Below the pieces are notes generated by a model, which saw only the letters and a program-made list of their open reading frames with translations, had not been told where the DNA came from and searched no databases. DNA of 64,000 bases from the IMG/VR virus record IMGVR_UViG_3300045988_158233; one strand, written 5' to 3'. Positions within the stretch are counted from its first letter, which is position 1; each line of letters opens with the position of its first letter. Of this stretch, positions 6,056 through 39,567 are shown one piece after another. The DNA is from a virus. Taxonomy: Duplodnaviria; Heunggongvirae; Uroviricota; Caudoviricetes. The position numbers were made by a program, and so were the translations under genes.

Positions 6056-6724
6056 ATGACCAAGATCTTTGTGGTTGGCGGCACAAAGGGCGGGCCTGGC
6101 AAATCCACCGTTGCCCAGCAAATTGCCGTTTGCCTGAAAGTCAAAAAGAAGAAGAAGGTTTATATCACCGATATAGATATTCAGCGCACGACAACGAGCT
6201 GGTGTGAAGACCGTCGACAGAACGAAGATCTTGAGCTGATTCCTTTTGCATACGTTCAAGATGACATCATTAAGCACCTAAAATCGCTTCAGGGTAGAGC
6301 TGAGTATGTAGTGGTAGATGCTGGTGGCTTTGACTCCGAAATTCAGCGACAAGCGATGCTGATGGCCGACGTTATCATTATCCCGCTGCGTCCTAAGCGT
6401 CGTGATTTGAAATCTTTACGTGACATCGATCCTATTATCGACAATGTTCGCAATGTAAACGACAAAGTGAAAGTCCGCGCGGTCATGAACCAATGCCCGG
6501 CTTTGCCATCACAAGTGTCTCGCATTCTAGCGGCTAAAGAGATTGTCGAGACGTTTGGCATCGAGTCTGCGCCAGTCAATCTATATAACCGCAACGTCTA
6601 TGATGATGCGGAAGAGTCTGGTCGTTCTATCTTTGAAATGACCGGTAGCGAGCGCGACAAAAAGGCGGAAGCCGAGTTTGAAGAATTTGTAGATTATCTG
6701 TTGAGTCTGGAGGAAGAAGAATAA
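6056..6724 (+). CDS. parA: ParA-family partition ATPase
   Basis: Deviant Walker A VVGGTKGGPGKST at the N-terminus; ~220 aa, the size of small ParA proteins; followed immediately by a small DNA-binding partner. Confidence 0.8.
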   Translation: MTKIFVVGGTKGGPGKSTVAQQIAVCLKVKKKKKVYITDIDIQRTTTSWCEDRRQNEDLELIPFAYVQDDIIKHLKSLQGRAEYVVVDAGGFDSEIQRQAMLMADVIIIPLRPKRRDLKSLRDIDPIIDNVRNVNDKVKVRAVMNQCPALPSQVSRILAAKEIVETFGIESAPVNLYNRNVYDDAEESGRSIFEMTGSERDKKAEAEFEEFVDYLLSLEEEE

Positions 6725-10698: not shown

Positions 10699-11879
10699 TG
10701 AGCCTTTATGTTATATCAACATTTAGGTTGGTCACAATATTGCCTGTTAAAAGTGGAATTATCGTGAGCGAGCTGAAAGAGCTAATTACCGAATTAGATT
10801 TTGAACAATGGTTGGACACTGAAGGTATCGTTTATCGACGTGGAGGCGTGAGTGCTCGCGGTCGTGAAGTGAATATCAAGGAGTGTCCGGTATGCGGCAG
10901 CTCCAACTGGAAGGTATATTTCAATCTGACCAGTGGCGTCGGCAAATGCTTCGCTGGTGATCATCCCGAAGAGATTCAGTTCAATAAGCTGGTCTTCCTC
11001 AAGCACTACAGCGGTAAATCACGACGACAGTTCGAGGAATATGTGCAGAACGCTCTTCTTTCCCAGGGGTGGGCACCAAAGAAAGAAGAGATAGTGCTTA
11101 CAAGCACAGTCGAGTTAGAGGGACCACTTGCACTCCCTCGTCATTACGAACTTCCTATAGATGGCCGTCTTCCAGACTATCTGGTTGAACGAAACATATC
11201 GCCTGAAATGGCAAAGTATTTTGACCTACGATACTGCGTCGAAGGCAAGCACGCTTATGTAGATCCGTATACAGATCAGGTAAAAGGACAGATATTCGAT
11301 ATGCGAGTACTGATACCGGTTTACGATCTGGATGGGGTAATGAAGACATTTCAGGGACGAGACATTACCGGTACAGCAGACCGCCGCTACCTCTTTCCTA
11401 TGCAGCTTCCAGCTTCAGGTAAGTTTCTCTACAACGGCCATAATGCAGTTGGCAAACAGACTGTAGTTGTCTGTGAGGGGGCGTTCGATGTTATGGGAGT
11501 TAAACGAGCTATTTTTGACGAAGAAACATTACGTGATTACGTGGAACCAATAGGAACGTTCGGGATGCATCTATCTGGCAACACCACTCAGGATGCAGAA
11601 GATCAGCTGGGCGCGTTCCTGACGCTCAAGGCGCGTGGATTACGTAATGTGATCATGATGTGGGATAGTGAAAAGCAAGCTATACGCAACACTATGGCCG
11701 CAGCCAGGCGACTCACAAGTATTGGTCTTAATGTCAAAGTTGCGTGTTTGGGCGAGGAAGGACTCGACCCCGGCGATGCGACACCGGGGCAGATTATCAA
11801 AGCCTACTATTGCGCAAAACCTTATTCACGACAGCTTGAACTCTTAAGCAAGGTGAAAGGCATTGCAGCACTAGTTTGA
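10699..11879 (+). CDS. DNA primase (zinc-ribbon + TOPRIM)
   Basis: Zinc-finger CPVCGSSNWKVYFNLTSGVGKCFAG and TOPRIM-like VVCEGAFDVMGV. Start placed at the ATG preceded by AAAAGAAAAACACATG rather than the longer track ORF start 10626. Confidence 0.65.
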
Positions 11880-13016
11880 ACCAGTATTAGTCACATACAC
11901 ATTGACCGAAAATGATTTAACTTCTGTATTGAAGTTGTCAGTCATTACCGCGAGGTAGGCATTCTTGGTATCTCTGAATTGCTTCAGGATGATTTGAACG
12001 TTATCGGTGCAAACAAACGAGGTAGCCAGATTGCCTCCTTTCTCTGAAAAATCCTTCAGGAAGGTGCAGTCAACTTTGCCATCATTAGCGGTGAAGGTAG
12101 CATCATCACCCTGCCAGGTAAATGTAGCGTTAACGCCCTTATCAATGGATTTAGCAATAAGTCGCTGGGTGGCGGATTTTGTTTTGGCTTTGGAAGCCGG
12201 CGCTCGATATTTGCCGCTTTCTTTCAGTTCTGCAATGTAATCGCAGCCTCTTTTTTCTCCTTTATCGCAAGCAGTCTGATAAAGGTCGGCTGCTTTTTTA
12301 TAGTCCTTTTTTACACCTTCCCCATTCTCATACATAATGCCAAGATTGGTTATGGCGTCGGCGTTTCCAAGTTCCGCTGCCTTTTTATACCACTTAACTG
12401 CTTCTGCATCATTGCGTTTAACGCCTAACCCATCATCGTATAGTATTCCTAATCCTATCATAGCTTCTGAACTGCCTTGGTCTGCCGCCTTTTTGTAATA
12501 AGTAAAAGCCTTTTTATAATTCTTTTTAACGCCTTTACCATATTGGTAATACGCCCCAAGAACTGAAGTTGCTTTAACATACCCGGCATCAGAGGCTAGT
12601 TTGAAGTATTTAATGGCGAGTGCATGATCTACTTTACCAAGCATCCCCTTTTGATAAATAGCACCAAGATTGTTGTAGGCTCTACCTTCACGAGCATCCC
12701 CCGCAAGTTTGTAGTACTCAACAGCTTTATTTAGGTCTTTATCTACACCCTCGCCAAATGTGTACATAACTCCAAGTGCATAATATGCTACTTTATCTCC
12801 CTTTTCTGCAGCTAGATCAATCCACTTCTTGGCCTCAACTACATCCTTATCAAAACCATTGACACCATCAAAATAATTTGTACCTAACTCACTTTGTGCT
12901 GCGGTATCCCCTGCGGTAGCGGCTTCTATCAGCGTTTGTTTATTGTCTGCGTTAACGAATCCAGAGTTAAAAAGCAAAGTTAATGCCAGCAACGATGAAG
13001 ATTTTATGTATTTCAT
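11871..13016 (-). CDS. Secreted Sel1-repeat (TPR-like) protein
   Basis: Signal peptide MKYIKSSSLLALTLLFNSGFVNA, then about eight ~36-aa repeats of the form A-x-YY-LG-MY-x-GEGV-KD-x-KA-x-x-WYKKAA; C-terminal ~100 aa non-repetitive. Start trimmed to the Met at the signal peptide. Confidence 0.75.
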   Translation of the reverse strand: MKYIKSSSLLALTLLFNSGFVNADNKQTLIEAATAGDTAAQSELGTNYFDGVNGFDKDVVEAKKWIDLAAEKGDKVAYYALGVMYTFGEGVDKDLNKAVEYYKLAGDAREGRAYNNLGAIYQKGMLGKVDHALAIKYFKLASDAGYVKATSVLGAYYQYGKGVKKNYKKAFTYYKKAADQGSSEAMIGLGILYDDGLGVKRNDAEAVKWYKKAAELGNADAITNLGIMYENGEGVKKDYKKAADLYQTACDKGEKRGCDYIAELKESGKYRAPASKAKTKSATQRLIAKSIDKGVNATFTWQGDDATFTANDGKVDCTFLKDFSEKGGNLATSFVCTDNVQIILKQFRDTKNAYLAVMTDNFNTEVKSFSVNVYVTNTGSN

Positions 13017-13249
13017 GTTTTTTTTTCTGTTGATATAGGATGAACAGTTTAGACGCGGCAAGCGTCAAGTGTGCGAAAAAGGGTACTTAAATTTAGTTAA
13101 TATGTCAGCTTTGTTGATTTAGTTTATGGTCGGTAAAGTTACTGGGAAACTAATAACCATAAGAAATAGTACGCCATTTAATTATTGTGGCACTGCTCGT
13201 GTTTTGATTAACTAATACCTGCGATAAATATAAATAAAGGGAAGCCAAC

Positions 13250-16581: not shown

Positions 16582-16797
16582 ATGATCGTATTAAGTAAAC
16601 GGGAGAAGGAAACGCTTCATGAAATCAGTAAGTGGCCGGAGTTCCCTGAGTACTGGAAGCCTAAAACGCGAGCTAAGTTAGAGCGTTTAGGGTTGGTTGC
16701 AAACGTTTCTGAAACGTGGTGTTCGGCCAACTACCAGTTAACTGATAAAGGGAAAGTATTGCTACAGCAATTAGTAGAATCAGGAGTGTTAAAATGA
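16582..16797 (+). CDS. Hypothetical small protein
   Basis: 71-aa ORF. Confidence 0.3.
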   Translation: MIVLSKREKETLHEISKWPEFPEYWKPKTRAKLERLGLVANVSETWCSANYQLTDKGKVLLQQLVESGVLK

Positions 16798-16942
16798 TTC
16801 CATACATCTCATTAGCTTTTATGGGTGGCTTCCTTATCGGCTTCGGCATCTGTCGTGATTTAATTAAGCAGGAACTTAAAACCAAAACACTGTGCATCGG
16901 AAAGCGTGTGTATCGGGTAGTTCATGAAACAAAGGTGAAAAA

Positions 16943-17233: not shown

Positions 17234-18008
17234 AAACATCACGATAAGTATTTACTTACTTATCTTTTATGTATAAGATGACTTTGTTTTCGTTGAGACG
17301 CGACTGTTTGAACTTAAATACAAGTGCAAACGAAGAAGTCTATCTGGCAGTAGCCTAATAAGCCAAACACCAGCGAGGTCAGTTTCCAGCCTCGTTACCG
17401 AAATGGGACACACTGAGCGAGTGTGATTGCAGAACGCAGGAGGGAACATTCATGTTCCCTCCGATGAAGTAACAGAATGGGCGGTTGGTATATTTTCAAC
17501 TCCATATGACTCCCGGATTCTTAGCCACTGACCGCCCATCCTGTTACGTCATTTTGTTCAATTATGTCGTTTATACTGGGTTAAAAAGCGGCGACGTAGC
17601 CCGGCTGGTATGGTTAGCCAGCACACAACGTTGAGGCCATTACATTTTTATCAATTCTAAGGTTCTATTCACAGAGATACCGGCGAGCGTTGATATGTAA
17701 CATGTTGGGCAAACATTCAATCGGAGTAGTGGCCTCAACGTTGTGAAGACAGGATTGTTGTGTAGGTTTAACCACTGTTGCCATTGGTGCCTGTTTTCAC
17801 AACAAATGATTCCATACATCACATTGTATAAATTACAAAGTAGGTGCTGTCCTCAAAAACATCATCTACTTAAAGATTTTGCCTACTATTGAGCGAAGTC
17901 GAAAGCGTCTGGCACTAACGAAAAGTGCAAGTAGCGGTGCGTTTCCTGGCAGAAACTAAACCGTCGCGATTGGCACTGTTGAGTAATAAATACTGGCAGT
18001 GTCGAATT

Positions 18009-18083
18009 GATGGTGTAGCTCAGCGGTAGAGCAGTTGGCTGTTAACCAACTGGTCGGTGGTTCGAATCCACCCACCATCGCCA
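18009..18083 (+). tRNA. tRNA-Asn (anticodon GTT)
   Basis: Manual fold: acceptor gatggtg/caccatc, T-arm ggtgg-ttcgaat-ccacc, anticodon loop ctGTTaa, 3' CCA encoded. Confidence 0.75.
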
Positions 18084-18088
18084 ATTTA

Positions 18089-18175
18089 GGAGAGTTAGTC
18101 CGTAGAGGTAGCGGGGTAGACTGTAAATCTACTGTCATTGCGACTCGGGTGGTTCGACTCCATCACTCCCCACCA
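18089..18175 (+). tRNA. tRNA-Tyr (anticodon GTA), class II with long variable arm
   Basis: Manual fold: anticodon stem gtaga/tctac with loop ctGTAaa, long variable arm, T-loop ttcgact, 3' CCA; one A-C mismatch in the acceptor stem. Confidence 0.65.
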
Positions 18176-18179
18176 AATT

Positions 18180-18255
18180 GCCGGTTTAGCTCAGTTGGTA
18201 GAGCGCCTGCCTTGTAAGCAGGATGTCAGCGGTTCGAGTCCGTTAACCGGCACCA
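18180..18255 (+). tRNA. tRNA-Thr (anticodon TGT)
   Basis: Manual fold: acceptor gccggtt/aaccggc, anticodon stem cctgc/gcagg with loop ctTGTaa, T-loop ttcgagt, 3' CCA. Confidence 0.75.
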
Positions 18256-18479
18256 ATACAACGATAAGATCATTACGGTTAATCGTCGTTCATGTGCACA
18301 ATGACTGGTCGAAAGGTAGTGATCTTACCGTTGTGGTGGATTCGCAGACTGATGCGATAGCTTTCTTGGATGTTAGGGAAATGCGGCCGCAAATCTTCCC
18401 TTTCGCGAGCGGTGATCGTCCGTAGTCCTAATTGGCTGCACCGTATGCCGGAGATTCAGTACCGGCTATCACAACGGCC

Positions 18480-18566
18480 GGAGAGTAGGGAGCATGGTGC
18501 TCAAGCGGTCTTGAAAACCGTCCCATTGCGCAAGCGATGATGGTTCGATTCCATTACTCTCCGCCA
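18480..18566 (+). tRNA. tRNA-Ser (anticodon TGA), class II with long variable arm
   Basis: Manual fold: acceptor ggagagt/actctcc perfect, anticodon loop ctTGAaa, long variable arm, T-loop ttcgatt, 3' CCA. Confidence 0.7.
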
Positions 18567-18722
18567 GACACAGCGTTGAGCGGTTTGGCCTTTTAATCAA
18601 CTCGATTAAGACTCCGCTAACATAAACCAGACCGCTCAACGCTGTGATAGACAATTACGGCAGACGTTCTTAACCATAGCTTGCTAACATCCTAGCAACA
18701 CTTTTTTTTCAGCGCAAAATTC

Positions 18723-18744
18723 AAAGGGGCTTCGGCCCCTTTTT
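18723..18744. terminator. Bidirectional rho-independent terminator
   Basis: aaaggggc-ttcg-gcccctttt, flanked by A-run on one side and T-run on the other; separates the tRNA cluster from the convergent minus-strand gene. Confidence 0.7.
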
Positions 18745-18751
18745 GGCTGGG

Positions 18752-19972
18752 TTAATTAAAACCGAATGAATTAAGTTCTGCTTTGAATTTATCGACCATT
18801 TTTTCAACTTCGTTTACAATTGCGTGAATCTCTTCGTCTTTTCTCGGATTAGAATTGAGGTCAAAATATGCCTTATATAAGGCATATTTTGACAAGCTTC
18901 CTTCAATATTTTCAGAGAAAATATTGGTACGACCATCAGTTAATAAGATATCAGCAGATCGGGAATTTAAATTATATTTATAGTAAATCTTTATTAGTCT
19001 GCTTATCTCTTTTTCATTCTTGATTACCCTCTGTCTTTTACCAGCAATATTAAGACTCCAGCCTACATAACTAGTCAGATCGGAATTAAACTTACACACT
19101 TCCGCATCAGCTTTTTCCATATTTAGATTAATATTATTTCTCATGTGTAGCGGTAATTCGTTGAATTTTTGCTGTAAATGCTGTTTGCAGGGATTGTTGT
19201 AAGACCACAGAATTGCGAACGTAGCTCTTTGCATCCGGGTATTCAGATCGATGTTAAAGTTCTCACGATCACGAATCATTTCATCTACATAAAACTCTAC
19301 AGCTTTTCGGTATTCTTTGTTAAAGATCTCGGTAACATACATTTCTAAATAATGGACTTTCGAGATTGCCTCATCAAAAAAAAGCTCACTCTCAAAGAAG
19401 TTGTATTTATTTAAGAGATTAGAAAGTCTACTTAAGTCATAGGTTTTATTATTTTCAATATTAAGACCAAAAATGGCAATTAACAGACTTACTTTATGAT
19501 TAATACTGCTACGTAATTGAGCTATATAAATTCTCTTTTCATCTTCTGCTGATGACAGTAGATAAAACTCTTTATCTAAATAATTTAAAATTAGAATTAT
19601 GTGATTTACATATTTAATGTAAATAGGTTGTTTTGTTACATAATAATAAATGCTTTTGATGGAATTAATGCTCAATTTCGTATTAAACTCTTTGTCATTC
19701 AACAAAGTGTTATTTACGTCCTCAAGTAATTTATCATGTTGCTCTAGTAATATTCCGTACCATTCCTTAAAAGAGGCTTTTTTCATTTCAAGAAGTGAAT
19801 CTGCCGTTAATTGTGTTGCCTTCATTGCAGCTTTTGCACTATTTCTTGCCTCATAAGCAGCCCAAGCAGTAACAAAAGTAGCAAGTGAACCTATAGCCTC
19901 TTTGTATTCTTTAGCCACATCCCAAAAAATAATAGTTATTACACACAATATGAGAATTAATATTAAAGGCAT
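18752..19972 (-). CDS. Hypothetical membrane-anchored protein (AT-rich moron; candidate exclusion/abortive-infection-type function)
   Basis: 406-aa minus-strand ORF; N-terminal TM helix PLILILILCVITIIFW then a K/E/N/I/Y-rich helical domain; very AT-rich codon usage compared with neighbours (by eye). Confidence 0.6.
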   Translation of the reverse strand: MPLILILILCVITIIFWDVAKEYKEAIGSLATFVTAWAAYEARNSAKAAMKATQLTADSLLEMKKASFKEWYGILLEQHDKLLEDVNNTLLNDKEFNTKLSINSIKSIYYYVTKQPIYIKYVNHIILILNYLDKEFYLLSSAEDEKRIYIAQLRSSINHKVSLLIAIFGLNIENNKTYDLSRLSNLLNKYNFFESELFFDEAISKVHYLEMYVTEIFNKEYRKAVEFYVDEMIRDRENFNIDLNTRMQRATFAILWSYNNPCKQHLQQKFNELPLHMRNNINLNMEKADAEVCKFNSDLTSYVGWSLNIAGKRQRVIKNEKEISRLIKIYYKYNLNSRSADILLTDGRTNIFSENIEGSLSKYALYKAYFDLNSNPRKDEEIHAIVNEVEKMVDKFKAELNSFGFN

Positions 19973-20178
19973 GTTATCTATATCGTTAGTTAATTTTGAA
20001 CATAAATGATACTTAGTCCACCGCTAAATTTCATCAAATTTGATAATTTTCTTGACGATCATGTCTCAAAATTATTTATACTTGGCATATTTGAGATATA
20101 TAATAATAGGTAATAACACACCTATCACATTTAAGCATCAACAAGATAAATTACGGACCCAGACCAGAAAGGAAACTA

Positions 20179-20427
20179 ATGAGAAATATACTTATCTACG
20201 GACGAGATAACTGCTCATACTGCAAACGTGCGGTCGAGCTGGCGAAGAAACTAAAGGGACATGGCTACGGTGATTATGAGTACATCGACATCACCACTGC
20301 CGGTATCGATAAGGAAAAACTTAGCGAAATTGTTGGTAAACCGGTAGAGACTATCCCCCAGGTGCTGATCGATGGCCAGCCGATTGGCGGATACACAGAA
20401 CTGGCTGCATACGTCAGCACCCTCTGA
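20179..20427 (+). CDS. Glutaredoxin / NrdH-like thioredoxin-fold protein
   Basis: 82 aa; CxxC active site in RDNCSYCKRAVEL near the N-terminus. Confidence 0.7.
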   Translation: MRNILIYGRDNCSYCKRAVELAKKLKGHGYGDYEYIDITTAGIDKEKLSEIVGKPVETIPQVLIDGQPIGGYTELAAYVSTL

Positions 20428-20432
20428 TTTTA

Positions 20433-20455
20433 ACGGCTCACAGGAGCCGTTTTTT
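20433..20455 (+). terminator. Rho-independent terminator
   Basis: acggctc-acag-gagccgt hairpin followed by tttttt. Confidence 0.65.
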
Positions 20456-20638
20456 ATTCCCACCAAACTCACACCTGTTTCCATTAAAATTCAAAAAACA
20501 ACGCCTGAATGATTCCATACCTACTATGTATGGAATCATTGCTGAAAATGAGTTACTTTTACTCTTGATCCTATAAGAATCTATGCCTAATATACTGTTT
20601 ACTTATACAGTGCATCGGCGTAACTCGGTGATTGTCAT

Positions 20639-21742
20639 ATGAAAAATAGCTTTGACAGAGCACGCGCTGCGGAGAACACCTCAAAAGAGGCGATAGAGTA
20701 TCTCGAAAGAGCATCTCAAATGCAGGCCGTTATGATCTCCCAGGTCAGCAATGACATGAGATTCTCGGACGCATTCATGTTATTCACTCGCTTATCTCTG
20801 CTGATAACCAGACGTCGGCCAGAGATCGCTGTTCATTGTATTTTGATACATGTTTTGCCGCACATTGCCGATGTAAAAGTAAGTGACATTAATAGGTTCA
20901 TGGTGAACCAACTGGTCAACCCACTAATACTGGATGGCAAAATTGTTATGGGCCGCCGCGTTTTCTCTCTGATGAAGCAGTTCCTTAGCTGGTGCGCCTT
21001 CCAGGGGATGATAGACGTGTCACCGTTAAACGATATGTCACTTAACAAAGTTGCCGGTGGCGCAAAGCCCACACCTCGCGAGCGGAAGCTGACCGACGCA
21101 GAGGTATGGGTGTTCTGGAATATATGGGACTACTTCAATGTGTGTGCTGGTACAAAATGGGCGGCCAGGCTGTGTCTTGTATCAGCAAGACGACCTGACG
21201 AAGTACTGCGGGCTAAAAAAAGTGAGTTCAATCTTAAGCGTGGGGTTTGGAATCAAGGCAAGAGGAACAAATCTGCCCGTGAGCATTCTCTGCCTTTAAG
21301 CTCATTAATGCGCACTTGTATTGAAGAGTTGTTCGAATATGGTAAAGACAGCCAGTGGCTCGTGCCTTCGAATAAAAAAATCGGGAAAGACCTTCCTATG
21401 TCTAAAGTGGCAATAGCCCAGGCATTACGTCGTATTCTGGAACGACCAGAACTGATGGAGCTTGAGCCATTTACACCCCGAGATTTGCGCCGTACTGCGC
21501 GTAGTTACTTCCCAGCATTAGGCATAAGCCAGGAGGTATCACGTAAAATCATGAACCACAGTCTTGAGGGGATAGATCGGGTCTACGACCGGCACGATTA
21601 TATGGACGAGATGCGAGACGCCTTAGAAAGTTTCTCGACGTACATCGCATCAATCGTAGAGCAACCGGATTTAGACGAAATTGACCACAAATTTAAGGGA
21701 GATCGTCTATCAACAGAGCTTATTCGTGTAAATTTTTCATAG
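20639..21742 (+). CDS. int: Tyrosine recombinase / phage integrase
   Basis: 367 aa; catalytic-domain residues in order: R in ARRPDEVLR, H-x-x-R in HSL...RRTARSY, and Y in RVYDRH. Confidence 0.75.
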   Translation: MKNSFDRARAAENTSKEAIEYLERASQMQAVMISQVSNDMRFSDAFMLFTRLSLLITRRRPEIAVHCILIHVLPHIADVKVSDINRFMVNQLVNPLILDGKIVMGRRVFSLMKQFLSWCAFQGMIDVSPLNDMSLNKVAGGAKPTPRERKLTDAEVWVFWNIWDYFNVCAGTKWAARLCLVSARRPDEVLRAKKSEFNLKRGVWNQGKRNKSAREHSLPLSSLMRTCIEELFEYGKDSQWLVPSNKKIGKDLPMSKVAIAQALRRILERPELMELEPFTPRDLRRTARSYFPALGISQEVSRKIMNHSLEGIDRVYDRHDYMDEMRDALESFSTYIASIVEQPDLDEIDHKFKGDRLSTELIRVNFS

Positions 21743-22123
21743 AGACTTTATGGCCTCAACAACCTTTTGTGATGCGCCTTTCTCTTTACCGAATCGCTCG
21801 TTATATGCAGCAAGAACCTGTTTTTCGTCCTCGTTAAGAGGAGCAGTGCCTTCTTTGTATAAAAATGCTGCGAGTTCGGGTTGGCGTTCTTCCAGCACCA
21901 TCATCATAAGACGACTTGGCTCAATACCCAGTGCCAGCGCCAGCGGACGAACCTTATCGATAGGCAAAGGAATTTTGCCGCTTTTAATTAAAGAAAGGTT
22001 GTTGGCGTTTTTATACCCAATTGTTTTGGCTATCTGGGCCTGGCTCATAGGTGAGGATTCAATCAACCCTGCGATAAAAGCAGCGTAGCGACTTTCTATA
22101 AATTCAATCTTGTTATCAGACAT
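21737..22123 (-). CDS. HTH (XRE-family) transcriptional regulator, repressor-like
   Basis: 128-aa minus-strand ORF with helix-turn-helix signature MSQAQIAKTIGYKNANNLSLIKSGK; divergent from a small + strand ORF across an AT-rich intergenic region. Confidence 0.6.
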   Translation of the reverse strand: MSDNKIEFIESRYAAFIAGLIESSPMSQAQIAKTIGYKNANNLSLIKSGKIPLPIDKVRPLALALGIEPSRLMMMVLEERQPELAAFLYKEGTAPLNEDEKQVLAAYNERFGKEKGASQKVVEAIKSL

Positions 22124-22374
22124 GGTTACAACCTTTGCGCGTTCAATTCTCTCTGGTAAGTGCTTACCGATATTACATCAAAGGTTAGGGTTGTAAAGCT
22201 ATTATCATTTTTTTCGATAGGCACTTAAAAGACCGGTTAAAGGCCATTGCACGGAGAAAAATTAGCCCAAAACAGGTAAGAAAATCAACTTGCATATGAT
22301 ATGTATGTATTCAGTATTGATACAAATTTTAGTAGTATTCCTTACCATAGTATAAGTTAGAATGGATTGATTGA

Positions 22375-22587
22375 ATGAACACCACTATTTCCAGCCTAAT
22401 CGCTCTTGAGATCGGACACGTACAGAAATTAGCTGATGAGTGTGTAGCTGACATCCTCACCGATCTACCGAATGAGCAGATTCAGGTTGGTGTGAATGAC
22501 ACAACTGGATTTATATTCGAACTTAACAACAAACGCTTCACGCTTCTCAATACCGGCTCCGGGTCTTTAGCCGTCAGAATCTGTTAA
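22375..22587 (+). CDS. Hypothetical small protein, divergent from the repressor (Cro-like position)
   Basis: 70-aa ORF. Confidence 0.3.
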   Translation: MNTTISSLIALEIGHVQKLADECVADILTDLPNEQIQVGVNDTTGFIFELNNKRFTLLNTGSGSLAVRIC

Positions 22588-26125: not shown

Positions 26126-26331
26126 TCGTGCGTAAAGGATGTTTCGGCTCTCTTATCGCTGCTTCTGAAACTGGTAAGGCTTGTCTGGTGTGTCCAGACA
26201 AGCCCGATTGTCACCAATCAGCAAAAGAAGTTGCGATTTCGATGCATGGGAAGTTCGTAGGCTTCCCCAATGACAAAATCAAAAAAACCAGAAAGGTAAA
26301 AACACATGAAGGCACTGATGGTTCGAACTGA
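26122..26331 (+). CDS. Hypothetical small Cys-rich protein
   Basis: 69-aa ORF with CLVCPDKPDCH; overlaps both neighbours, so it may not be real. Confidence 0.2.
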   Translation: MIVRKGCFGSLIAASETGKACLVCPDKPDCHQSAKEVAISMHGKFVGFPNDKIKKTRKVKTHEGTDGSN

Positions 26332-29300
26332 CTTCTCACTTGGGGAGTCGGCTCTAAAAGCAGAAAACGCGGTGAAGATTGCCAGAGAAGCTGGCTACAC
26401 CGCTGTAATTTCAGCAGATAGCATGAATATTGCGAGCGTTATTCCACTACAACGTGCCGCTGGTGACGACATGGCGGTTATTTGTGGTGTGAAACTAAAC
26501 ATTGTTGATGATCCCACATACGAGCACCGGGCTAAACTTGCTAAAGAATCTATGAGATGTATGGAATCATTAGAGCGGGGACGTAACTACTCGTTTACCG
26601 CTCTAATTAAAAATGAGCAAGGATATCGCGACATCTGCGAACTAATGACGGTGGCCAACACACGAGAACAGTTCTACTTTGTACCGCGTCTCTCGCTCGA
26701 ACAGTTGGTTTCTACATATGCCAAAGGCAACATCATCCTGCTCACTTCCGACATCGGTAGCGTGTTCCAACGCAACGATTTTGCAAAAATCATAAGCTCA
26801 CTGATTACAGCGGGCGGGAAAGACAACTTCTATAGCGTGGTTTATCCGCACCCTACCCCATTCTACGACCAGATTAACGTCCGAGCGATGAAAGTAGCCA
26901 GCGCACTGAAAATAGAGCCAGTAGCGTTCTATCCCGCTTATTACGAATCGATCGACGATGCAGACATTAAAGACATTGCGCACATGGTTACGAACAACAT
27001 AAAAATCGACCAGCCGCATCGTCTGCGTATCCCCCACCAGCGAGATAACGCCGTCAATGGTCGCCGCCATCTCCTTGAGGCGCTTAAAGCCTTCTCCGTT
27101 CGCATGGATGTGCCGGTAACAGCTGCAATGGCCTCAACAACGCAGGACTCCATTATCGAAGCCTGTACATGGCGCTGGCATGAATTGCCACCAGCACTGC
27201 CCAAGATGGCAGACGACGAGCCTGCAACGCTGATGAAACTGGCTGTTGCAGGGCTGCGCAAACGTCTTACCACAAAAGAGTTTGGCTACACACCACCGGC
27301 TTCTGAGAACAGGGTTTATGTTGAGCGACTTAAGTACGAAATGGACACGCTTACTCGCCTGGGATTTTGTGGTTACTTCCTGATGGTACGCGATCTGATG
27401 AATCACAGCCGTGAAACTGGCATTCCTGTCGGGCCTGGTCGTGGTTCCTCCGCTGGCTCTTTGGTGGCATGGTGCATAGGCATAACCAACGTCGACCCTA
27501 TCCGTCACGGTCTTCTGTTTGAACGTTTCATCAACCCTGAGCGTCTCGACTTGCCAGATGCGGATTTGGACTTCAGCCAGGCACGTCGCCATGAGGTGAT
27601 CGAGTATCTGAATGAACGATACGGCGAAGATTACGTTGCGGGTATTCCGAACTTCACATATCTGGGCGCAGCCTCTGCACTACGTGACACCGCTCGTATT
27701 TATGGTGTGGAGTCCGCAGATATGGCGGTATCAAAAGAACTGAAGAACGTCGAGGATGATAGCCTTCCATTGGAAGAGCTGCGCGAACAACTGGCAAGTC
27801 TCGACAAATACGCGACAAAATATCCTGATGCATTCAATGCAGCCTGCAAGTTACAAAGCCTTATGCGTGGCTTTGGTAGACATGCGGCAGGGATGATCGT
27901 AGCAGGTGTTCCTCTGACAGAACGTACACCGGTTGAGCGCCGTGGTGACGCGCGTTGTATCGCATTTGACAAGCGTTACTGCGAGGCTATGGGCCTAATT
28001 AAGCTGGACGTACTTGGCCTAGCAACTCTCGATTTGCTTGATAGTGCAAAACGCTACATTAAAGAGAACACAGGTGAAGATATCAATCTTGATGCCATTT
28101 CTCTTGAAGATCGCAAGGTGCTGGATGGTTTTGCTGCTGGGTACACTCAAGGTGTTTTCCAGCTTGAATCAGGCCCAATGCGCAAGCTGCTTAAAGATTT
28201 AGGTGGTGGAATTGAGCCAATGAGCTTTAAAACGGTCGTCGCTACGACTGCGCTCTTCCGGCCGGGGCCAATTCAGTCAGGCATGTTGGATGACTATGTT
28301 TCTGTCGCCAAAGGCTTTATGACGCCGGAATCATTACACCCCGTTCTTGATGAACTTACCGCGGAAACAAATGGCGTGATTCTCTATCAGGAACAGACGA
28401 TGAACGCGACTCGATTGCTTGCCGGCTTCACAATGGCTGAAGCTGACGCTGTGCGTTCCGCAATCGGTAAGAAGAACATGGAAAAAATGAAGAGCATGGG
28501 CGAGAAGTTCATCGTTCAGGCTCAAGCTGGCTGGATAGACGTTGAGCTGGAAGATGGCACTACACAGCGCATTCACCGTGCGGAACATTTTAAATGCGAA
28601 GACGGAACTCTGAAAACTGTCGAAGAGGCACTTGAGCACGGCGCAAAACTACCTATAAACGCAGTACGCGTTACAGCGTCACATCCAGGGCTATCAGAGA
28701 TGAAAGCGAAGGAGATCTGGACCGCATTCGAAAAAAATGGTGCCTACCAGTTCAACAAATCACACTCTGTTGCTTACTCCTTGATCAGTTATCAATCTAT
28801 GTGGTTGAAAACTCATTATCCCGCAGAGTTTTTCGCTGCTGCTCTCACTATTCTTGGCGAAGATAAACACCAGGGGCTGGTTAAAGATGCGCTGACCTAT
28901 GGTATTCGCGTATTGCCACCAGACGTTAACGTGTCATCCAACCGAATCGAGATCCGCACGCTTGAAGATGGCAGCCAGGTGCTGTATGCGCCCTTCTCTG
29001 CTGTGAAGGGGTGTTCTGAGAATGGCTGCCAAGCCATCATGAGAGCGCGAGAAAAAGTTGGCGGCAAATTCGAGTCACTGGCGCAATTCGAAGAAGCTGT
29101 CGAGAAACGTGCCTGTAATAGTCGAGTGCGCGAATCGCTGCAAAAAGTAGGGGCGTTTGCATCCATCGAGCCAGGTAGTCTGCCAGCAACTGATCCAGAG
29201 CGCCTACGCGACCAGGCTGAATTGATGGGAAACCTTGTCATAGACGCAGTTAAAGCCTCACGTCCGTTTGAGATGAACTCCAAACGTTCGGCTGAGATTA

Positions 29301-29824
29301 ACGTGCTCATGACACGGATGGCGGCTGAAATGGGCTTAGGTGATGAACTAATCCGCCCCAGCATTGGTATTAAGCCGAAAATCATGATCATTCTGGACAA
29401 TGCGAACGGCAATGATGCTCGAACCGGTTACTTTATGGAGAACGGATACGACGATTTTAAGGCCAAGCTATTGACGGCTGGAGATTTACGCATGGGCGAT
29501 CTGTATGTCACAGGCGTTTGCAAAAAGGTGAAAGACAAAGAAAAGGACTACACCAAAGACGAGATCGGCCAGTTCACCGACTTTATGCGTGAAGAGATCA
29601 ATCTGGTACGTCCGACCTATGTGCTGACGTGTGGCAGCCGGGCGACGTCGCTCTTCAACAACAAGATCAAACCATCCGACCTGGTTGGACGCAAAGAGTA
29701 TCTGCCGGAGCTAGATGTGACTGTTTTCTACGGATTTAACCCGAATATTTTGTACTTTCGCCCAGAGGAAGGCGAAAAGCTGGAAGCAATTCTTGCAGAG
29801 GTAGCGGAGACTATTAGCAAATGA
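26306..29824 (+). CDS. dnaE: DNA polymerase III alpha-subunit-like (DnaE family) replicative polymerase
   Basis: 1172 aa; PHP-like N-terminus; conserved Pol III alpha core [52 protein letters not shown]; C-terminal ~150 aa of different character. Confidence 0.85.
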   Translation: [1172 protein letters not shown]

Positions 29825-29999: not shown

Positions 30000-30980
30000 T
30001 TAACAAATTCTATTATTAACTAGTATAGTATGGAGTTTATTATTTATAGGGGAATACGGATCGAAATCACTCATCATGACACTATTTGATTCGCACGCCT
30101 GTTCAAAGGCATACATAATTATAGGCATATAGCGCTCATGACATTTTTTAAGTGATTTAACTTCCTCTGATAGATACTCTAGTCGATTGTTACCTCTAAT
30201 AGCCAATTCCACCTCATCATATGAGTACAACAAATCGTTTAAATCACAGAAAAAATTAAAATTTGGTAGTCCATGTTTTAAATCCCCGTCCACAATTGTT
30301 TCTTCAAAGAATTCCCCTAATGCAGTAATGTTTCTCTCAATACCTTCGCATCGTTCAATGATCTTCAGATCTTCACTAGATAGCCATAATCTAAGCCATT
30401 TCTCTCTATCCCTTGGAGATTTCAGATATTGGTCTTCGTTAAATGTTACTGATGTACTTCCTGAGTTATTGTAATCCGCTGTACTTGATAACGATGCGAT
30501 GGTTTGTTTGTCTAAATGCCGCCAGTAAATATCTGGCTCTTCATGCTTATTATCTTCGTTTAGACAAATTAAAACGATCACTATAGGGAAATCGCATTCC
30601 CCCCAATACTTTAAATTTTTATAGGGGATCTGTACTCCTAGACTACTACTCATTGTGCGTGAGGTGGTTTTTACCTGAACGCCAATAAACATACCGGTAG
30701 AAAGTTCATTTTCATAGATTTCAACCTGTGCATCCAACCCCATATCAATATCCAGCAGTCGACAAGGCCATTTGAAATAACGGGAAATCCAATAAGCAAA
30801 TAAGTACTCACCAGCGTGTCCTTCTGCACTGGTCTTCGGATATGTCATGCCTTCAGTTTTATTTTTTTCTGCTGCTGACCTCGCAGACTTAACTTTTGGG
30901 GGTGGGGACAGTTCTTTAGTCGGCACAGGCTTTTCTGCTTTTGCTTGATTGTTAGCTTTATTCATTGATTTTATTCTCAC
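30000..30980 (-). CDS. Hypothetical protein with N-terminal PD-(D/E)xK-like nuclease motif (AT-rich moron)
   Basis: 326-aa minus-strand ORF; GEYLFAYWISRYFKWPCRLLDIDMGLDAQVEIYEN...GMFIGVQVKTT has acidic residues followed by a strand ending QVK, as in restriction-endonuclease-fold nucleases; Lys-rich N-terminal tail; AT-rich by eye. Confidence 0.55.
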   Translation of the reverse strand: MRIKSMNKANNQAKAEKPVPTKELSPPPKVKSARSAAEKNKTEGMTYPKTSAEGHAGEYLFAYWISRYFKWPCRLLDIDMGLDAQVEIYENELSTGMFIGVQVKTTSRTMSSSLGVQIPYKNLKYWGECDFPIVIVLICLNEDNKHEEPDIYWRHLDKQTIASLSSTADYNNSGSTSVTFNEDQYLKSPRDREKWLRLWLSSEDLKIIERCEGIERNITALGEFFEETIVDGDLKHGLPNFNFFCDLNDLLYSYDEVELAIRGNNRLEYLSEEVKSLKKCHERYMPIIMYAFEQACESNSVMMSDFDPYSPINNKLHTILVNNRIC

Positions 30981-37817: not shown

Positions 37818-38351
37818 CACCGCTGACAGCATACACAATCAACTGCCGCTGATAGCATATCGAGAGTCTATCTCACCGCTCACAGCATACTTTACTCGAT
37901 TTTTTACCGCTGACAGCATACTTAAGACATTGCATGAATAATGTGTACCGGTATGGGTATAACCAGAACAAAATTACCGCTGGCAGCATACGAAGGTCTG
38001 ATATATGCCATTAATTACCGCTGATAGCATATCCAAACAAAAATTCCTCAATAAAACACCGCTGACAGCATACGTTCTATCAGGGAGCAGCAGGCAATAA
38101 ATACCTTTCACTACAAGTAATCAGCGCAATGGGAATAGAATGTTAGTGAGCGCAAACCTATATGGAATGCACTCTTCGAGGTTAGTAACCACTGGGGAGG
38201 TATAAAAGAGCATTGAGTGGTGATAGATGATTTACCGCTCACAGCATACGTTTATCTCACTATACCGCTGGTAGCATATCTTTAACCGTTCACAGCATAC
38301 TTTTCAGAAAAATAGCCGCTGATAGCATACATTTCACCGCTGACAGCATAT
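37818..38351. repeat. Iteron array downstream of repA (about 12 copies of a 17-bp repeat, consensus yACCGCTGAyAGCATAy)
   Basis: Copies at about 37818, 37844, 37874, 37905, 37975, 38026, 38057, 38233, 38263, 38284, 38314, 38335; irregular spacing; all in the same orientation. Confidence 0.8.
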
Positions 38352-39445
38352 CAAAGCAGTTTGAGACTATTGGAAAGGATCTCAATCATCTTGATATTTT
38401 CAGGCGTCAAATTCTGCGAAAGTTCAGTTATCTTGTTGATAATGTTCTGTTTAGCATCAATTTCCCCGGCTTTCTCATCTGGTTTTTTGGGTTCGATGTC
38501 TTCAGGTTTTGGCGGTGCGACTTTAAGTTTTGGATTGCGGCTGTGAATCTGGATATAGATCGACCGCCCTCGCTTAATCTCGCTGTATTCGAGATAGCCC
38601 AAATCTTGGAGAGCTTTTAAGCCGTTACGTATAGTCTGATTCTGCGAGCTTACATTCCTGCTACTCAAATTGAGTCGCGCACGCAATCGAGCAAGCGATA
38701 CCGGCGCAGGCTTGGTTGGAAGACTTTCGATGAAGGTGTACAGAGCCTGTGCTGTTTCTTTGCGTGGTAGCTTATTGATAACCTTTAACTGCAAAAGAAC
38801 CTTATGGTCAAAGCGATATAGTTCGGCCAGCTTCGGTTCTGCATAGAACACCACCGTATCTTTCTGCTCGTTGTAGTCCACGCTATTGATGAGGTGCACC
38901 ATCAGAAGCGAGATCTTGTTAGAGCCGTCGACGTTCTTTTCTTCATACGTTCTCTGGAAAGACAGAGTTGTACGCATGATCTTCAAAAGACTGTTTGTAA
39001 GCCGGTCGCGGAGTGTTTTGCGGATCTGTGACGATGGATAGCCACAAAACTTCGCAAATTTCGTGATGCTTAACTCGACACGACCGTTAGGTTCGCCGTA
39101 TTCTGCCAGCGAACGCACAACGCCCACCCACGTTTTGAAATCATGATCCATGTCGAGACGAGGACCGGTTATCTTGATATCGGAATAGCCTTCAGAACGG
39201 GCTACTTCGAGCTGAACAAGCTCCTTTGAAGCATCGATCTCATTTGGCTTGTTACGCTTGCTGTATTTTGTCCCCTTGAGCGTGGGCACGAACAATCCCA
39301 GCCGCATCAACGCAATTGGTTGGACTGTATTGTTGCTATTAGGGACAAGTTCCCCTGTGTACAATTCAAGGGAACCTTCTTCAAAGTTGTCGAGATTATC
39401 TTCTACTTCTTTGTTATTTTTACCTTTTTTATTTTTTGTGGACAT
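38351..39445 (-). CDS. repA: Iteron-type plasmid replication initiator (RepA-like)
   Basis: Minus-strand ORF flanked on both sides by iteron arrays; start trimmed to the Met (MSTKNKKGK...) that does not overlap the upstream iterons; basic N-terminus, ~365 aa. Confidence 0.65.
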   Translation of the reverse strand: MSTKNKKGKNNKEVEDNLDNFEEGSLELYTGELVPNSNNTVQPIALMRLGLFVPTLKGTKYSKRNKPNEIDASKELVQLEVARSEGYSDIKITGPRLDMDHDFKTWVGVVRSLAEYGEPNGRVELSITKFAKFCGYPSSQIRKTLRDRLTNSLLKIMRTTLSFQRTYEEKNVDGSNKISLLMVHLINSVDYNEQKDTVVFYAEPKLAELYRFDHKVLLQLKVINKLPRKETAQALYTFIESLPTKPAPVSLARLRARLNLSSRNVSSQNQTIRNGLKALQDLGYLEYSEIKRGRSIYIQIHSRNPKLKVAPPKPEDIEPKKPDEKAGEIDAKQNIINKITELSQNLTPENIKMIEILSNSLKLL

Positions 39446-39464
39446 GTGGACACCTTTGTCATTC

Positions 39465-39567
39465 AACCGCTGACAGCATACTTGATTTGCCGCTGACAGA
39501 ATACCAAAAACAGTTGGCAGCATACGGTGAACCGCTGACAGACTATCAATTACCGCTGACAGCATAC
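39465..39567. repeat. Iteron array upstream of repA (about 5 copies; probable origin/autoregulatory region)
   Basis: Copies of the same repeat at about 39465, 39488, 39515 (partial), 39529, 39551. Confidence 0.75.

Follow-up and report, generated by a model that had tools for sequence, protein, structure and literature searches.

The 64,000-nt stretch of DNA analysed here (IMG/VR virus record IMGVR_UViG_3300045988_158233, Caudoviricetes; called the window in what follows) is, judged by DNA identity and gene content, part of an Escherichia coli phage-plasmid of the known SSU5/pHCM2 type, and it carries a tyrosine recombinase gene, int, preceded by a perfect palindrome that we call site P. We propose, with slightly better than even confidence, that Int and P make up a self-contained, Cre/loxP-like simple recombination module that controls the multimer state of the plasmid, most likely through dimer resolution, and we file the pair as a new, uncharacterised member of the lox-like recombinase-plus-site kind. 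The anatomy of the module, its conservation, the co-variation of the arms of P with the enzyme, the location on plasmids only and a breakpoint of homology at P are seen directly in natural loci. A previous annotation made from the sequence alone (the sequence-only reading) had listed the recombinase, a helix-turn-helix (HTH) gene, a small divergent open reading frame (ORF), an AT-rich region and the palindrome, all of which were found where it had placed them.

Int and its probable palindromic site

The int gene (20639..21742, plus strand) encodes a protein of 367 amino acids with the core-binding and catalytic domains of tyrosine recombinases and without an arm-binding domain. Pfam matches were obtained to PF00589 (Phage_integrase, E = 2.9e-10) and to Phage_int_M, and the PHROG match was to phrog_1 ("integrase"); residues 1-70 had no Pfam match, and a phmmer search of the PDB with Int gave none either. 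The AlphaFold model (pLDDT 85.9) has a two-domain fold, core-binding plus catalytic, and its best Foldseek match was to residues 75-356 of lambda Int, that is, to lambda Int minus its arm domain. Further matches were found to Xer, Tn1549 Int, IntI and Cre, with a Foldseek probability of 1.0 for lambda Int and for these, and SroF of phage phi3T was also among the structural matches. The homologues of Int form a tight clade (44-100% identity), located for the most part on megaplasmids or on contigs of ~100-120 kb, and a check of the large contigs that hold close homologues showed ordinary plasmid contigs of ~93-106 kb. The next relatives outside the clade are P4-type integrases, at most 34% identical, which have the arm-binding domain PF13356; in an alignment of 27 sequences this domain was present only in the outgroup (sequences P0114-P0120) and in none of the clade members, and R185, K211, R284, H307 and Y316 were conserved. 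Because the catalytic residues are conserved, the arm domain is absent and the modelled fold is that of lambda Int without its arm domain, Int looks like an active "simple" tyrosine recombinase.

Site P (20508..20540, AATGATTCCATAC-CTACTAT-GTATGGAATCATT), the proposed core recombination site of Int, is a 13-7-13 palindrome located 99 nt upstream of the int start codon, with two perfect arms of 13 nt around a centre of 7 nt. Its 27-nt core (20511-20537, allowing up to three mismatches) matched once in the window and never in 100 shuffles, and as single-stranded DNA the site folds with -11 kcal/mol (z = -6.2). IMG/VR was scanned with the pattern ATGATTCCATAC-N7-GTATGGAATCAT, in which the arms are fixed and the spacer is free, and the loci were oriented by tblastn. 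The pattern was present in 101 loci, and in every one that also held int the palindrome was upstream of the gene. The distance is around 100 nt where Int is at least 82% identical, 45 nt in a lineage with 59-61% identity, and ~45-290 nt over the clade as a whole (44-100% identity, more than 150 loci). The spacers are lineage-specific, with CTACTAT, CTATTAA, TTGGTAG, TTGTAAG, TTATATA, TATGTAA, TCYTTAG and CTATAAA among them.

More distant relatives, with 44-53% identity, were retrieved through the protein and not through the site, from Providencia, Xenorhabdus, Photorhabdus, Morganella, Hafnia, Rahnella, Ewingella, Erwinia and Pantoea, and several of these loci belong to Pantoea and Erwinia records that carry a plasmid annotation. 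Upstream of the gene, 53 of the 59 in-clade genome loci have a perfect palindrome built in the same way, and three more have an imperfect one. Two substitutions, the same in either arm, distinguish the sites of these relatives and give TGACTCCAGAC-N7-GTCTGGAGTCA, located ~60-260 nt upstream of the gene start (Pantoea, Erwinia, Rahnella, Xenorhabdus, Providencia). The spacer length is 7 nt throughout, in more than 150 loci and with both types of arm. In one Erwinia locus, surrounded by metabolic and transport genes, the palindrome is present and the HTH, CobT and DnaE neighbours are absent, so the palindrome travels with int and not with the repressor.

The conservation of the arms, their symmetric change with the enzyme clade, the fixed length of the spacer and its free sequence argue for P as a recombinase core site. 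The palindrome, put forward as a candidate site by the sequence-only reading, is very probably the site of Int, as judged by the co-variation of arms and enzyme and by its position close to the gene across the clade. It has the makeup of a Cre/loxP-type target, with gene-proximal inverted repeats of about 13 bp and an asymmetric spacer in the range of 6-8 bp. The same reasoning identified nox and pox, since the gene-proximal palindromes in Nigri/nox, as well as in Panto/pox, were predicted as Cre-like targets and then confirmed experimentally (PMC4957104).

It seems to us very improbable that P is a mere hairpin terminator, or the operator of another factor, whose adjacency to int is incidental. 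P can form a 13-bp hairpin, and a T-rich run on the minus strand, ~9 nt past P, could end transcripts of the HTH gene. However, the T-run stands at a distance from a stem that is AT-rich, the arm sequence itself is conserved beyond pairing, the length of the spacer does not vary, and the palindrome accompanies int also where the HTH gene is absent.

To the left of P, otherwise unrelated flanks (loci L001-L180) have in common an A-rich motif (cAGAWTTCAAAAAA-like). In the window this is AAAATTCAAAAAAC (20486..20499, plus strand), ~9-10 nt from P as read from the flank listings, and related motifs are also present in Pantoea and Rahnella loci of the distant clade. It may be an accessory element of the site.

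Location of the module on plasmids

Over ~3 kb around int, the window is 98.5% identical to phage Cyrano (pLF82), and many E. coli plasmids of ~95-115 kb are 99-100% identical to the same ~3 kb. In PLSDB, 741 plasmid records matched (Klebsiella, Escherichia, Enterobacter, Yersinia, Citrobacter and Salmonella), 709 of them typed as non-mobilisable. The element has the properties of the SSU5/pHCM2-type phage-plasmids, a described family (PMC7969092), namely a circular plasmid of ~100-115 kb, a siphovirus module, replication and partition genes, and DNA identity. The plasmid replication and partition genes claimed by the sequence-only reading could be located, a ParA-type ATPase (6056..6724) and a Rep3-type initiator (38351..39565) in the window and ParB in a close relative. 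Cyrano and a relative identical across the int region carry the siphovirus structural module, and both annotate ParA/ParB, replication initiator, helicase, primase, ligase, DnaE, a RecA-like protein and toxin-antitoxin pairs. Cyrano produces virions and is induced 39-fold by ciprofloxacin (PMC9928086).

The int-repressor region was found in 252 of 5426 complete E. coli genomes, at 255 places. It had been doubted from the sequence that the integrase serves for chromosomal integration, and a comparison of integrated and episomal copies had been suggested; in these genomes every copy is on a plasmid (255 of 255) and none is chromosomal. This comparative evidence supports that Int is not used for stable chromosomal integration. 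A classical prophage integrase, with P as the attP core of an element that alternates between plasmid and chromosome, is thus hardly credible and for E. coli largely refuted, even if hundreds of records label the gene "site-specific integrase" and its nearest outgroup is that of the P4-type integrases. Besides the plasmid-only location, Int has no arm-binding domain, P is not a tRNA-derived core but a palindrome of perfect symmetry whose spacers are lineage-specific, the same module is present on non-phage megaplasmids without the repressor gene, and the rare chromosomal remnants of phage-plasmids are treated in the literature as not integrase-directed (PMC12977533).

Probable recombination footprint at P

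Homology within the family breaks off at P. Of 926 pairs of loci with identity of at least 95% over the 100 nt right of P, 421 had an identity below 60% over the 40 nt on the left side, and the left flanks fall into 23 clusters. In the window, a variable cargo region (18085..20507) ends exactly at P and contains tRNA-Tyr, tRNA-Thr and tRNA-Ser, a 406-aa ORF of 31% GC and a glutaredoxin gene (grx), the latter abutting P. Variability extends from the tRNA genes (~18085) up to P, interrupted by conserved islands at tRNA-Ser and grx. Cyrano has an additional 0.6-kb ORF left of P, CYRAN_43 (L001:20420-20974), which in the lysogen is expressed 723-fold above the prophage background and is the highest-expressed moron (PMC9928086). 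Unrelated genes, including an AraC-type regulator, are found at this place in PhiR41_1, and a YafO toxin pair in other relatives.

The centre of P has also changed in place. Over 10.4 kb, PhiR41_1 (L002) shares 99.88% identity with an IMG/VR contig (L046), and three of the 12 mismatches between them are an inverted centre of P (ATAGTAG against CTACTAT; L002:6002-6032). A second, independent flip was found between a Buttiauxella plasmid and the CTATTAA group (L048/L121), and in the distant clade TTAATAG and CTATTAA are both present relative to int. Because the spacer was flipped in place, the orientation of P relative to the gene is, on these comparisons, unconstrained, which fits a site that needs only a match on another molecule. 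The flips could have been produced by the recombinase acting on symmetric arms or by template switching at the palindrome.

The sequence-only reading had offered dimer resolution or cassette recombination as roles for the enzyme. When the cargo was scanned for a second, hybrid or spacer-matched one-arm site, none was found bounding any cargo, and because of this P is read as a crossover point between co-resident relatives and not as a cassette insertion site. The evidence thus leans to recombination of P with P between plasmid copies, within which resolution itself would be the probable outcome, and away from the cassette.

An integron-like capture of cargo, in which SOS-induced Int would insert circular DNA at P and so build the variable region on its left, is in our view improbable. 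It would agree with the most variable stretch of the plasmid stopping exactly at P, with a LexA box on the int promoter (described below), as is known for the LexA-regulated integrases of integrons, and with the high expression of the Cyrano gene adjoining P. Another point of agreement is that the resistance genes inserted in SSU5 and pKpn plasmids sit next to PhoH, ligase and CobT-type genes (PMC9600943), and genes of these kinds also adjoin int and its cargo region in the present loci. Against it, the copies of the arm in ~170 loci are those of P and of fixed half-sites (S1-S4, below) only, the left edge of the variable region is at the tRNA genes and not at a site, attC-like repeats are absent, and the 3' end of grx is often replaced among the cargo variants, which fits ordinary recombination.

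With respect to the content of this region, the 406-aa ORF (18752-19972, minus strand), in the 31%-GC stretch, belongs to phrog_18168, has no Pfam match and is cargo that was probably acquired recently. Four tRNA genes (Asn, Tyr, Thr, Ser; 18009-18566) lie between half-site S2 and the cargo, and their complement varies, with Asn, Thr and Ser in Cyrano and Asn alone in Klebsiella plasmid pJN2-26. The possibility that S2 is the left border of a mobile cassette was rejected, as S2 is inside a conserved block and variability begins past the tRNA genes.

Proposed reaction

In the mechanism that we infer, two Int protomers would bind the two identical 12-13-bp arms of P. Synapsis would bring together two P sites, on separate plasmid copies or in a multimer, and strand exchange would take place over the 7-bp spacer. 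The module would in this way regulate the multimeric state of the plasmid, most likely by turning dimers into monomers. A role in multimer control is proposed because the element lives only as a plasmid, and it is the specific role of dimer resolution within it that we infer at one further remove. As two P sites can belong to different co-resident relatives, P would at the same time be a fixed breakpoint for genome mosaicism.

Predicted SOS control of int

A promoter-like site for int, TTGATC-17-TAATAT (20565..20593, plus strand; 8 of 12 consensus matches), was read by eye, being below the threshold of the scan tool, and is kept across the lineages with Int at least 82% identical. A predicted LexA box, TACTGTTTACTTATACAGTG (20593..20612), overlaps the -10/+1 of this promoter and is the single occurrence of CTGT-N8-ACAG in the window. 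Its two halves, CTGT and ACAG, persist in almost every lineage whose Int is at least 82% identical, whereas the eight bases between them are variable, which is how a functional LexA box would be expected to look. A near-identical plasmid of ~108 kb has two good LexA boxes, this one and another preceding a humD/umuD-like gene (L106:6618). No LexA box was found in the 59-61% lineage or in the Providencia and Xenorhabdus phage-plasmids.

The int gene is thus probably SOS-inducible in the lineages that have the box. Because the box overlaps the int promoter, most Int would be expected to appear after DNA damage, which is also what induces phages of this family. Such a box on the promoter is a poor fit with a housekeeping resolvase, and suggests that the enzyme matters at induction.

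Dispersed half-sites

The exact 13-mer arm has five copies in the window, the two arms of P and those at 16793 (plus strand), 17805 (plus strand) and 26559 (minus strand), and no further copy was found in the other ~44 kb of the near-identical plasmid. The three dispersed copies, named half-sites S1-S3, share the 15-mer ATGATTCCATACATC (the P arm plus ATC) and are all oriented toward P. S1 (16794..16808, plus strand) overlaps the start codon of a 50-aa ORF, S2 (17806..17820, plus strand) is intergenic, ~190 nt upstream of tRNA-Asn, and S3 (26556..26570, minus strand) is inside dnaE (26306..29824), at codons 84-88. They are found at homologous positions in every lineage with this arm (Int 59-100% identical), S1 and S2 being ~1 kb apart at a variable distance left of P and S3 being 6.0-6.3 kb to the right. 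S2 is a conserved island of 15 nt amid diverged intergenic flanks. At S3, the codons TGT ATG GAA TCA showed no synonymous variation in 24 haplotypes, whereas neighbouring codons vary, and in the clade with the other arm an unrelated DnaE peptide stands at this position. Some lineages have a fourth copy (S4), inside int and with the same minus orientation as S3.

No half-sites were found in the TGACTCCAGAC lineages, and no inversion or deletion between the S sites and P was found in ~170 natural loci. S1-S3 are, from their conservation, best seen as functional DNA elements, and most simply they would be extra binding sites for Int. That the half-sites are the starts of short ORFs (MIPYI...) was considered and rejected, since a Shine-Dalgarno sequence and a conserved ORF are present only at S1; the frames that follow S2 and S3 lack conservation.

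The HTH gene and the divergent ORF

The HTH gene (21737..22123, minus strand), a probable lysogeny repressor gene, encodes 128 amino acids and overlaps int tail to tail by 6 nt (21737-21742). This overlap is kept in E. coli, Klebsiella, Citrobacter, Xenorhabdus and Providencia, with no terminator in between. The sole terminator-like hairpin past int (21963-21979) is within the HTH gene, on its antisense strand. The protein matched phrog_8 ("transcriptional regulator", 1.3e-11) and weakly HTH_19 (E = 7.8e-4, below the Pfam cut-off), had no match in a sequence search of the PDB, and is without a LexA-like self-cleavage domain. It evolves faster than Int, being 56-69% identical between lineages in which Int is 82-90% identical. 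Its homologue in Cyrano, CYRAN_45, is a syntenic gene of 387 nt within the 98.5% identical DNA match, and is expressed 10-fold above background in the lysogen (PMC9928086).

The G+C content of the intergenic region (22124..22374) is 34.3%, compared with 45.3% for the window, which bears out its earlier description as AT-rich. It contains a promoter-like site for the HTH gene, TTTACA-16-TAATAT (22170..22197, minus strand), whose surrounding 45 nt are conserved across lineages, and just downstream of the -10 a 14-bp palindrome, GGTAAGTGCTTACC (22155..22168), which is a candidate operator. The palindrome is kept (with TG or TA at its centre) in seven of eight lineages and has one arm mismatch in the eighth, in such a way that the stretch from promoter to palindrome is nearly invariant despite the diverged protein. 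Additional GGTAAG/CTTACC half-sites are present in this lineage only, and a rightward promoter was not picked up by the promoter scan. The expression in the lysogen, the promoter with its 14-bp palindrome and the faster evolution than Int make a lysogeny repressor plausible, one that would act on a palindromic operator at its own promoter. Of the repressor that the sequence-only reading had placed here, the HTH gene and its strand are firm, and the function in lysogeny is a plausible one.

The "Cro-like" label that the same reading had given to the divergent ORF (22375..22587, plus strand) found no support, and its basis was the position of the gene. This ORF encodes an acidic protein of 70 amino acids (pI 4.5), assigned to phrog_2627 (unknown function), for which neither Pfam nor NCBIfam gave an HTH match. 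Against the PDB, a profile built from 13 syntenic ORFs returned nothing with E < 0.1 (one chance-level match, E = 0.19), a word-based homologue search returned close relatives alone, and the single-sequence AlphaFold model, with pLDDT 46.5 and one helix, was unusable. Whereas in a CI/Cro switch both divergent genes encode HTH proteins, here an HTH was recognised only in the leftward one. The synteny of the ORF is kept as far as Providencia and Xenorhabdus, and it would be the first gene of a divergent, rightward early/replication operon, followed by CobT-like, AAA and DnaE genes.

A regulatory role and the weak points of dimer resolution

The position of int against the repressor gene also allows a regulatory reading, in which SOS-driven transcription of int would run antisense into the repressor gene, and/or Int bound at P and S1-S3 would control the early and replication genes, and the module would then be the input through which DNA damage reaches the lysis-lysogeny switch. 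We regard it as unlikely, yet as one to be taken seriously. It would account for a phage that is ciprofloxacin-inducible (PMC9928086) although its HTH protein is without a LexA-like cleavage domain. The sole good LexA boxes of the plasmid are at int and at the humD-like gene, the tail-to-tail overlap extends from E. coli to Providencia, DNA-level conservation of the half-sites holds even inside dnaE, and phage repressors with a recombinase fold exist, SroF of phi3T among the structural matches being one. On the other hand, the conserved catalytic residues imply real recombination, and the int-HTH arrangement is kept in the Providencia and Xenorhabdus phage-plasmids, where neither the half-sites nor the LexA box were found, as the box was not in the 59-61% lineage. 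A broader form of this idea, in which the module is a DNA-damage sensor and a catalytically competent lox-type Int doubles as a regulator or architectural factor for the region of lysis-lysogeny control and replication, through antisense transcription into the repressor gene and occupancy of P and the half-sites, appears rather doubtful.

Several observations weigh against Int and P as a module for dimer resolution. LexA repression would keep the enzyme low during ordinary growth of the plasmid, when a resolvase is needed, so that Int may have its role at induction or infection instead of in maintenance. Resolution may moreover be redundant, given the host XerCD and the resolvases of SSU5 elements, whose persistent genes include resolvases in addition to tyrosine recombinases (Pfeifer et al., PMC7969092). 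Three or four conserved half-sites are not accounted for by a purely lox-like model, and the first catalytic His is replaced by Arg (R281) throughout the clade, as well as in one outgroup sequence. Finally, no natural dimer or P-P cointegrate was seen, and in two cointegrate plasmids, of 324 kb and 232 kb, the junctions are insertion sequence or transposon (IS/Tn) elements and not P.

Comparison with known systems

By function and architecture, the closest system is Cre/loxP of phage P1, and by descent the module is an arm-less offshoot of the P4-type integrases. With Cre/loxP, and also with Dre/rox, Panto/pox and Nigri/nox, it shares a single arm-less tyrosine recombinase beside its own target, perfect 13-bp inverted repeats around a short, asymmetric and AT-rich spacer, a plasmid-maintained prophage as host, and an expected function in multimer resolution, possibly also in cyclisation, with a fixed breakpoint (PMC7969092, PMC4957104). 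It differs from Cre/loxP in the spacer (7 nt here, 8 there), and in its P4-type descent, predicted LexA box, dispersed half-sites and semi-conserved A-rich motif on one flank, the probable SOS control and the dispersed half-sites being its unusual features. Int has no specific sequence relationship to Cre, with a structure-based identity of 10-12% and a Foldseek E-value of 7e-3, compared with 5e-7 for lambda Int. Panto/pox was considered as the same system and rejected, since Panto, although it originates from Pantoea, is homologous to Cre and has a rox-like site of 13-8-13 layout (PMC4957104).

The P4/CP4-57 integrases (NCBIfam PRK09692) are the nearest outside relatives (26-34% identity), and share with Int the central and catalytic domains and the "DLRRT" and "YDRHDY" motifs. 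Unlike them, the Int clade is without PF13356 and without a tRNA-type attachment site, and was never found integrated in the complete E. coli genomes; the score of Int against PRK09692 was 33.9 bits, where the family cut-off is 434.

The integron pair IntI/attI resembles the module in a gene that reads away from its site, in variable genes across the site and in a LexA box in the integrase promoter, here a predicted one. In contrast to integrons, no attC sites, cassette arrays or hybrid junctions were found here, the scan of the cargo region showed no attC-bounded cassettes beside an attI, and P is a symmetric duplex site.

The shufflon system Rci/sfx of IncI plasmids is a tyrosine recombinase with sites that have a 7-bp spacer and one conserved arm. 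It is thus a precedent for single-arm sites such as S1-S3, although here no inversion or deletion between S sites and P was seen in ~170 loci, and the S sites are kilobases apart, one of them inside an essential gene.

Relevance of the module

Phage-plasmids of the SSU5 type were found in ~5% of the complete E. coli genomes and also among hundreds of Klebsiella, Enterobacter, Salmonella and Yersinia plasmids, including pMT1-like ones, and in some of them resistance genes are located in the region that ends at P (PMC9600943). Reviews state that phage-plasmids "typically lack integrases", and a tyrosine recombinase is listed among the persistent SSU5 genes with no function assigned (PMC7969092). 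Our literature search found no characterisation of Int and no mention of the arm sequences in this context. A function and a site for the persistent SSU5 "integrase" would fill this gap in annotation and explain the fixed breakpoint of the mosaics.

The clade is also a candidate source of lox-like recombinase/target pairs for tools, with two natural arm specificities, about two dozen natural 7-bp spacers (each orientation counted separately) and a probable orthogonality to Cre, Dre, Vika and similar enzymes. In addition, the LexA box together with the convergent repressor gene would offer a testable route of SOS induction for a repressor without a self-cleavage domain.

Other features of the window

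An Rfam scan of the window returned tRNAs and nothing else. A Sel1-repeat protein (11871-13061) and a DUF4365 protein (30000-30980) are encoded on the minus strand amid arrays of plus-strand genes, and are possible accessory or defence genes. Plasmid NZ_JBVDMG010000001.1 (L106:7081-10372), whose int region is identical to that of the window, carries host-like apbC and metG (methionine-tRNA ligase) genes.

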